Below, in pieces: positions 17,698 to 18,147 of a DNA stretch of 21,580 nt; within the stretch, counting starts at the first letter, position 1, and every line of letters starts with the position of its first letter. The DNA comes from a virus. Taxonomy: Duplodnaviria > Heunggongvirae > Uroviricota > Caudoviricetes. Below the pieces are notes generated by a model. That model made no database searches. It saw only the letters and a list, made by a program, of their open reading frames with translations, and had not been told where the DNA came from. The stretch lies in IMG/VR virus record IMGVR_UViG_2724679140_000004, positions 1-21,580 of that record, one strand, 5' to 3'. A program made the translations under genes and the position numbers.

Positions 17698-17925
17698 CTA
17701 CCCGAAATTATCACTGATGTACTGCATTATCTTCTGAAAACTCTCAGCTTTCTGTTCAGCGCCCGTCGCACAACTCTCTGACGCCATAACAGCTTTTATG
17801 ACTGAGCCTGAACCAATGAAGAAATCCGCTACCAGGTCCACAGAATGACTACCAGCACAAATTACGGATGTTTTTTCACAAGAATACTTACCCGGGTAAA
17901 ATTGATCTGGCTTATTCGTCCACAT
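17698..17925 (-). pseudogene. N-terminal fragment of a Dam-like (D12 class) N6-adenine DNA methyltransferase, truncated after ~80 codons
   Basis: ...YPGKYS...(16 aa)...LVADFFIGSGSVIKAV matches the spacing and motif I (FxGxG) of E. coli Dam as I recall it. The ORF stops at 17698 where the AT-rich, non-coding sequence begins. No convincing RBS. Confidence 0.4.
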
Positions 17926-18147
17926 ATCAGAGTACGGTAATAACACTAGCACACAAAAATACTGGCGCAGCTCTTTATATTCACTAAGTCAGTCACTTCT
18001 GTGATACATACATGGCCTCGAACCAGTGGTGTGTTTTCCCTTTTCCGGTTAACGTGACACACCAATAACTCTTGTCGAAAAAGCCAGCAAGCTGAAAGAC
18101 CGGTATTCACCACCACCAGCGCGTTTAACGTACTGTACCGATTTCAG

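Follow-up and report, generated by a model that had tools for sequence, protein, structure and literature searches.

A probable 5′-truncated pseudogene of a beta-class DNA methyltransferase in the late region of a lambdoid prophage

We analysed a 21,580-nt stretch of DNA from a Caudoviricetes record (IMG/VR IMGVR_UViG_2724679140_000004, positions 1–21,580), referred to here as the window, which is ∼94% identical overall to E. coli prophages. Our interest was in a short minus-strand ORF at 17698–17952 that a first-pass annotation, made from the sequence by eye, had described as a methyltransferase fragment. The features on either side of this ORF are listed below from right to left.

19461–20510, minus strand: DUF968 gene.
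19074–19448, minus strand: RusA.
18256–19077, minus strand: Q antiterminator (Pfam PF03589 Antiterm, E = 6.4e-52).
18158–18173, minus strand: tR′-like intrinsic terminator hairpin downstream of Q, CCCGCCGCCTGGCGGG followed by a T-run (terminator scan).
18034–18157, minus strand: conserved late-operon leader downstream of tR′ (88%–94% identity in thousands of E. coli prophages; alignment to SfV and Stx2a_WGPS2).
18033/18034, no strand: putative deletion junction at which the late-operon leader is fused to methylase codon ∼230 (leader homology and alignment).
17698–18033, minus strand: probable pseudogene remnant with the 3′ third (final ∼120 codons) of a PF01555 methylase of the lambdoid late region (tblastn, Pfam and alignment).
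17998–18033, minus strand: frameshifted 5′ edge of the remnant.
17989–17991, minus strand: in-frame TGA within the remnant.
17698–17952, minus strand: ORF of 84 aa with a GTG start, within the remnant (ORF list).
17437–17650, minus strand: STnc100 sRNA (Rfam RF02076; cmscan 109.2 bits against a gathering score of 47, E = 2.4e-24, model positions 1–206 of 206).
17065–17394, plus strand: homologue of iraM, encoding the anti-adaptor protein IraM (NCBIfam NF007393, 145.5 bits against a cutoff of 121).
15463–15960, minus strand: TerB-family gene, to the left of the remnant.

The minus strand thus reads Q, terminator, remnant and TerB, with holin genes expected next from annotated relatives, and these same-strand neighbours identify the locus as the late region of a lambdoid prophage. 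The remnant lies on the late-gene strand between Q/tR′ and the lysis cassette (the lysis side again placed from annotated relatives), an arrangement that matches SfV, mEp460 and the prophage of E. coli CM2010-0578/1. The methylases of these phages and of an Stx2a phage (SfV Orf48, NP_599080; mEp460 gp53; Stx2a_WGPS2 gp29; CM2010-0578/1 WP_191634469) occupy the same slot, in the order Q, tR′, small ORF, methylase, and then morons or lysis genes. In the Stx2a phage the methylase precedes tRNAs and the stx genes, and Q is not annotated within the stretch shown. The terminator at 18158–18173 aligns with the annotated rho-independent terminator after Q in SfV. This terminator and the ∼125-nt leader (18034–18173 for the pair) are conserved at 80%–94% identity in 2,878 of the 5,426 complete E. 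coli genomes, frequently more than once in the same genome. Intact phages have a 65-aa winged-helix-like ORF of the SfV orf47 type after the leader; the matches of this ORF to winged-helix families (TrmB/MarR-like) are weak, and it is deleted in the window. The Q gene itself carries a DnaJ-type CXXCXGXG zinc-finger-like segment at residues 171–218, which overlaps the Antiterm domain (PF00684, 28.8 bits against a gathering score of 32.7).

The ORF at 17698–17952 holds, as the first-pass annotation had quoted, GKY followed by 16 residues and LVADFFIGSGSV (full segment GKYSCEKTSVICAGSHSVDLVADFFIGSGSV), and its likeness to methyltransferases lies far beyond chance. A Pfam hmmscan returned a single family, PF01555 (N6_N4_Mtase, E = 1.8e-5), at 25.2 bits, just below the gathering score of 26.7. 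When the ORF was compared by tblastn with 50,697 phage records, 94 of them matched, all over at least 80% of its length and at less than 60% identity; among the matches listed the annotation was DNA methylase, with E-values down to 6e-20. Descent from the PF01555 family is established on alignment, with domain-level membership sub-threshold because only 45 of the 221 profile positions are left.

The surviving part is the end of the gene and not, as had been proposed, its beginning. ORF residues 30–74 match positions 174–218 of the 221 in the PF01555 profile, the C-terminal end of the domain. In the three phages inspected (SfV, mEp460 and the Stx2a phage) the ORF corresponds to the last 246–261 nt of methylase genes of 1053–1059 nt. 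When SfV Orf48 (350 aa) was aligned to the whole window by tblastn, residues 246–349 matched 17997–17701 at 50% identity (E = 4e-27), and residues 1–245, including DPPY, found no alignment anywhere in the window. The same search with two full-length methylases at relaxed settings (E ≤ 10, word size 2) recovered no N-terminal methylase remnants in the whole window. Within 3.4 kb of the remnant no frame of the six contains [DNS]PP[YFWH], so the degraded DPPY that the first-pass annotation had looked for at 16640–17000 is not there, nor would one be expected at that place; the only occurrences are two unrelated SPPH, at 8.7 and 14.2 kb in the window. The stop codon of the remnant falls 1–3 residues from the ends of the intact proteins, and what had been taken for a premature stop after ∼80 codons is, on this protein alignment, the native stop of the methylase gene.

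The order of motifs in the full-length homologues places the family. All four that we examined have DPPY at residues 34–37 and FxGxG, the AdoMet-binding motif I, at ∼310; the remnant's DLVADFFIGSGSV aligns with DLVADFFMGSGST of the intact enzymes, near the C-terminus, and the motif I core DLVADFF(M/I)GSGS of the lambdoid methylases is conserved in it. The intact homologue from CM2010-0578/1 scores 153.7 bits against PF01555 and does not match PF02086. Its solved relatives in the PDB are all beta-class (M.RsrI, M.MboIIA, CcrM, DpnA and M.PvuII), and its nearest NCBIfam model is PRK11524, the YhdJ type. This protein is a clear member of the PF01555 beta class, alongside E. coli YhdJ/PRK11524, M.RsrI (PDB 1EG2), M.MboIIA and CcrM; the remnant differs from such functional members in its sub-threshold score, in the small share of the domain that it retains and in having no catalytic motif. 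The FxGxG block stands at the end of the gene because the beta class has a permuted order, with motif IV near the N-terminus and motifs X–I at the C-terminus. We therefore disagree with the Dam (D12) class named in the first-pass annotation. For the remnant, and for the 103-aa form of its ORF found in relatives (P0001), hmmscan at E ≤ 1 and at E ≤ 10 listed PF01555 alone and not PF02086 (MethyltransfD12), the latter null being limited by HMMER filters that discard most matches above about E 0.1. The remnant alone had no significant match in the PDB or NCBIfam.

The likeness to Dam/D12 enzymes (PF02086; E. coli Dam, T4 Dam) is superficial and consists of (G)K-x(15–16)-hydrophobic-D/E-x-F-x-G-x-G, the motif X–I block common to amino-methyltransferases. 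Dam/D12 proteins carry the block at the N-terminus, ahead of DPPY. In the remnant it is at the C-terminus, and the DPPY of the ancestral gene lay before it. By the established classification, reportedly that of Malone, Blumenthal and Cheng (1995), this block is N-terminal in alpha-class Dam and C-terminal in the circularly permuted beta class. The misreading is understandable, since the spacing from GKY to FxGxG belongs to an AdoMet-binding block shared by both arrangements. By its alignments, the remnant is the C-terminal motif X–I block of a beta-class enzyme.

Methylase homology extends upstream of the ORF. The GTG is an arbitrary start, the first one past an interrupting TGA; the homology continues in the same frame through this TGA to 17997 and then, frameshifted, to 18033. 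Across the TGA the segment reads SD*LSEYKELRQYF against SELLDEFKSLRRYF in an intact methylase (tblastn), and at the 5′ edge the DNA at 18033–18021, CACACCAC-TGGT, aligns with methylase codons ∼230, CCACACCACCAGCTGGT (KPHHQLV). The remnant as a whole thus aligns with residues ∼230–350 of the lambdoid methylases of the SfV Orf48 type, with the stop position in common, and keeps the last third only, without DPPY or the target-recognition region. From the other side, homology to the leader ends at 18034 (18030 in CM2010-0578/1), exactly where the small ORF that usually comes next has its ribosome-binding site, and the leader side includes the Shine–Dalgarno sequence of this lost 65-aa gene. Since leader homology ends at 18034 and methylase-derived DNA begins at 18033, the junction lies at 18033/18034, and it is the same in all relatives that carry the remnant. 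The breakpoint could be located by alignment to full-length phage homologues, as the first-pass annotation had suggested, but on the opposite side from the island at which it had been placed. Since the 3′ end is native, the iraM island neither disrupted nor displaced that end of the gene; the loss of ∼1 kb is on the 5′ side, towards Q.

An intact methylase at this position is present in the closest related prophage, that of E. coli CM2010-0578/1 (94% identity over 86% of the window), which answers the comparison with related prophages that the first-pass annotation had proposed. Its slot contains, in this order, a Q-like gene, the 65-aa ORF, an intact 348-aa methyltransferase, tRNA-Gly and TerB. 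In comparison, the window lacks ∼1,040 bp, made up of the 65-aa ORF and the first ∼229 codons of the methylase. The heptamer GGAAAAG occurs on both sides, in the Shine–Dalgarno region of the leader and in methylase codons 227–229, which suggests a microhomology-mediated deletion; under this idea the parental allele should read ...CTGGAAAAGCCACACCAC... at codons 227–232.

We consider it very probable that 17698–18033 is a non-functional, 5′-truncated pseudogene of a ∼350-aa beta-class N6-adenine methyltransferase that arose by a ∼1-kb deletion, and the idea of a truncated phage adenine-methyltransferase gene was right in outline. Lambdoid phages have this gene in the late operon, between Q/tR′ and the lysis genes. 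One deletion of ∼1 kb, presumably a single event, would have removed the small ORF of the SfV orf47 type together with methylase codons 1 to ∼229, and with them the target-recognition region and motifs IV–VIII, the catalytic DPPY included, joining the conserved late leader to codon ∼230. What survives is the motif X–I tail (AdoMet-binding, FxGxG) with its native stop. The remnant is predicted to have no DNA methyltransferase activity, given the loss of the catalytic and target-recognition parts and how little of the domain is left. Transcription of the remnant would presumably occur just as a passenger of Q-antiterminated late transcription. STnc100 and iraM sit behind the methylase stop, in the “moron” slot whose contents usually vary, and were not the cause of the truncation.

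The remnant is rare: a blastn search (“distant” setting) of complete E. coli genomes found it in four only, with no intermediate match. All four have the identical junction and come from mouse or mouse-derived samples. Further copies are present in a set of assemblies and metagenome contigs. PGAP places no annotation over the remnant in the E. coli genomes that carry it. The remnant is ∼50% identical to every intact methylase found, compared with 76%–95% mutual identity among the intact E. coli phage methylases over the same region. No closer intact parental allele, above ∼50%–57% identity, was recovered from E. coli genomes, phages, proteins, GTDB, IMG/VR or metagenomes. A word-indexed protein search returned just three short ORFs of 98–103 aa; an exhaustive HMMER search of 1.84 billion protein representatives gave full-length matches at 39%–44% only; GTDB genomes held no exact junction match (0) and no close relative; and IMG/VR and metagenome contigs yielded only further copies of the remnant or relatives at ∼48%. 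The remnant may stem from a divergent parental allele or have decayed over a long time.

Several disruptions separate the remnant from the intact lambdoid methylases. The TGA at 17989–17991 is common to the window and to two relatives (L002 and L006), the other copies having TTA and the intact genes a leucine codon; one further copy (P0003) carries a C-terminal frameshift. In alignment with the intact proteins there is a five-codon gap, and residues invariant in four aligned intact phage proteins have been lost (HPCEKP has become YSCEKT, and LGR has become SES or SGS). Among five haplotypes of the remnant, 9 of 300 sites are variable, of which eight are non-synonymous (including the nonsense change) and one is synonymous, in what is a small sample. 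The adjacent spacer including STnc100 varies at 8 of 255 sites, equal to the level of the remnant, and between the window and one relative (L009) pN and pS are the same (0.017).

Differences between the remnant and intact genes fall on the three codon positions as ∼31:19:61, and pN is 0.26–0.30 with pS saturated, compared with a pN of 0.13–0.145 among intact genes. From this codon-position bias and pN it follows that much of the divergence arose under selection in a divergent parental allele. The remnant would have taken on extra non-synonymous change after that allele diverged. From its disruptions and its polymorphism, we hold with high confidence that the remnant is now a neutrally drifting pseudogene.

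We asked how well other readings account for the same data. One of them gives the remnant a non-coding role, either on the 5′ side of STnc100, where it would supply a promoter or a processing context, or as part of a mobile module of tR′, leader and STnc100 that recombines among lambdoid prophages. The sRNA starts just 47 nt past the stop of the remnant, and the block from terminator through leader and remnant to STnc100 (18173–17443) recurs at 94%–96% identity although the Q-type gene ahead of it is of three unrelated kinds: Antiterm for the window, DUF1133 for the relatives L001 and L009–L016, and a third antiterminator with an extra 245-aa ORF for L002 and L006. The homology breaks of this block are two terminator hairpins, at 18162–18173 and ∼17443, and the block therefore acts like a small, hairpin-bounded mosaic module. 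However, physical linkage explains the co-transfer equally well, and a consensus scan predicted no minus-strand sigma-70 promoter for STnc100 within or just after the remnant (17650–17760). The flank is also not needed elsewhere: in Stx2 phages STnc100 sits after stx2B and not after a methylase (PMC12370729), and a second STnc100-like copy in E. coli M8 comes without the remnant. We regard a non-coding role as unlikely.

A second alternative is a domesticated small protein, in which selection would maintain the truncated ORF (103 aa in relatives), for example as a mini-domain that binds AdoMet or has a regulatory role and is produced from the late operon. P0001 is an uninterrupted ORF in most relatives (MYHRRDLLSEYK...), with an ATG equivalent to window position 18009 and a Shine–Dalgarno-like GAGG 6 nt before it. 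It is intact in many contigs and identical in sequence in at least 38 collection blocks, behind the three Q types, and its FxGxG core, DLVADFFIGSGS, is nearly unchanged. A small protein could be translated in copies with intact P0001. Yet the copy in the window and two others have a nonsense codon at codon 7, another copy is frameshifted, nearly all of the few polymorphisms alter the protein, the remnant varies as much as the flanking spacer does, most of the Rossmann fold is absent, and the fragment by itself matches nothing significant in the PDB or NCBIfam. We think this alternative very unlikely.

That the motif X–I tail is more than debris, be it as a 103-aa AdoMet-binding or regulatory protein or as an obligatory 5′ context of STnc100 in a compact, terminator-bounded module that passes between lambdoid prophages whose Q genes are of three unrelated types, seems to us distinctly improbable. 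The first-pass model, in which the N-terminal ∼80 codons of a D12 Dam had their 3′ part replaced or interrupted by an AT-rich island at 16.4–17.7 kb, draws on the Dam-like N-terminal motif X–I spacing and on the variable accessory DNA (STnc100 and iraM) that starts right after the ORF, but we give it almost no credence, since its Dam/D12 assignment is refuted by the alignments (the PF02086 null, the beta-class PDB relatives and the C-terminal match at E = 4e-27), the inspected homologues align over their last ∼100 residues and the stop, and the breakpoint is on the other side.

The truncated methylase pseudogene remains our preferred reading, and its biological weight is small. Prophage decay of this kind is ordinary and already understood, and the case is a routine one of a gene eroding within the mosaic late region that lambdoid prophages have. 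For annotation, the ORF would best be labelled a 5′-truncated PF01555 methylase pseudogene, neither a Dam fragment nor a gene, and no methyltransferase should be assigned to the prophage. The case also illustrates how a motif X–I block common to circularly permuted classes can mislead a motif-only reading about which end of a gene survives.

The more interesting cargo of the slot is the STnc100 sRNA and the iraM homologue. The DNA flanking the ORF had been described as AT-rich and non-coding; the stretch at 17437–17650 is STnc100 with a GC content of 49%, ending in a strong terminator (17447–17469, terminator scan), and the low-GC stretch is the iraM homologue (17065–17394). In E. coli, the anti-adaptor IraM stabilises RpoS. 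The homologue in the window has a GC content of 0.34–0.37, the lowest of the region, and lies on the strand opposite to the late operon; its counterpart in E. coli M8 is named iraM by PGAP. It has no Pfam match at E ≤ 1, and relatives carry a precomputed PmrD (PF11183) match. STnc100 is a known prophage sRNA, carried by Stx2 phages 75 nt after stx2B (PMC12370729) and reportedly related to PasD (bioRxiv 10.64898/2026.05.13.724894). The contents of the slot after the methylase vary between phages, with tRNA-Gly in CM2010-0578/1, tRNAs and stx in the Stx phages and nothing in SfV.

We noted several further features on this side of the locus. A degenerate tRNA-Tyr(GTA)-like sequence at 16257–16338 (minus strand) has a perfect 7-bp acceptor stem and CCA; it was called by ARAGORN at the relaxed -ps90 setting only, being absent from default ARAGORN and from Rfam at E ≤ 1, and probably represents a phage tRNA that has decayed in the tRNA slot behind Q. 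Mobile elements have hit the iraM side of the module in two relatives: in E. coli M8 (L006, 4147–4605) an IS200/IS605 tnpA lies between STnc100 and iraM, and in L009 (7319–9383) an IS (rve) truncates the prophage beside host transporter genes and a SIR2-family gene. The segment at 16390–16825 is ∼81%–83% identical to what follows tRNA-Gly in CM2010-0578/1 and to unannotated DNA in many E. coli prophages, from pig ETEC and from other strains; a 65-aa ORF within it (16440–16637, plus strand) has no credible family match.
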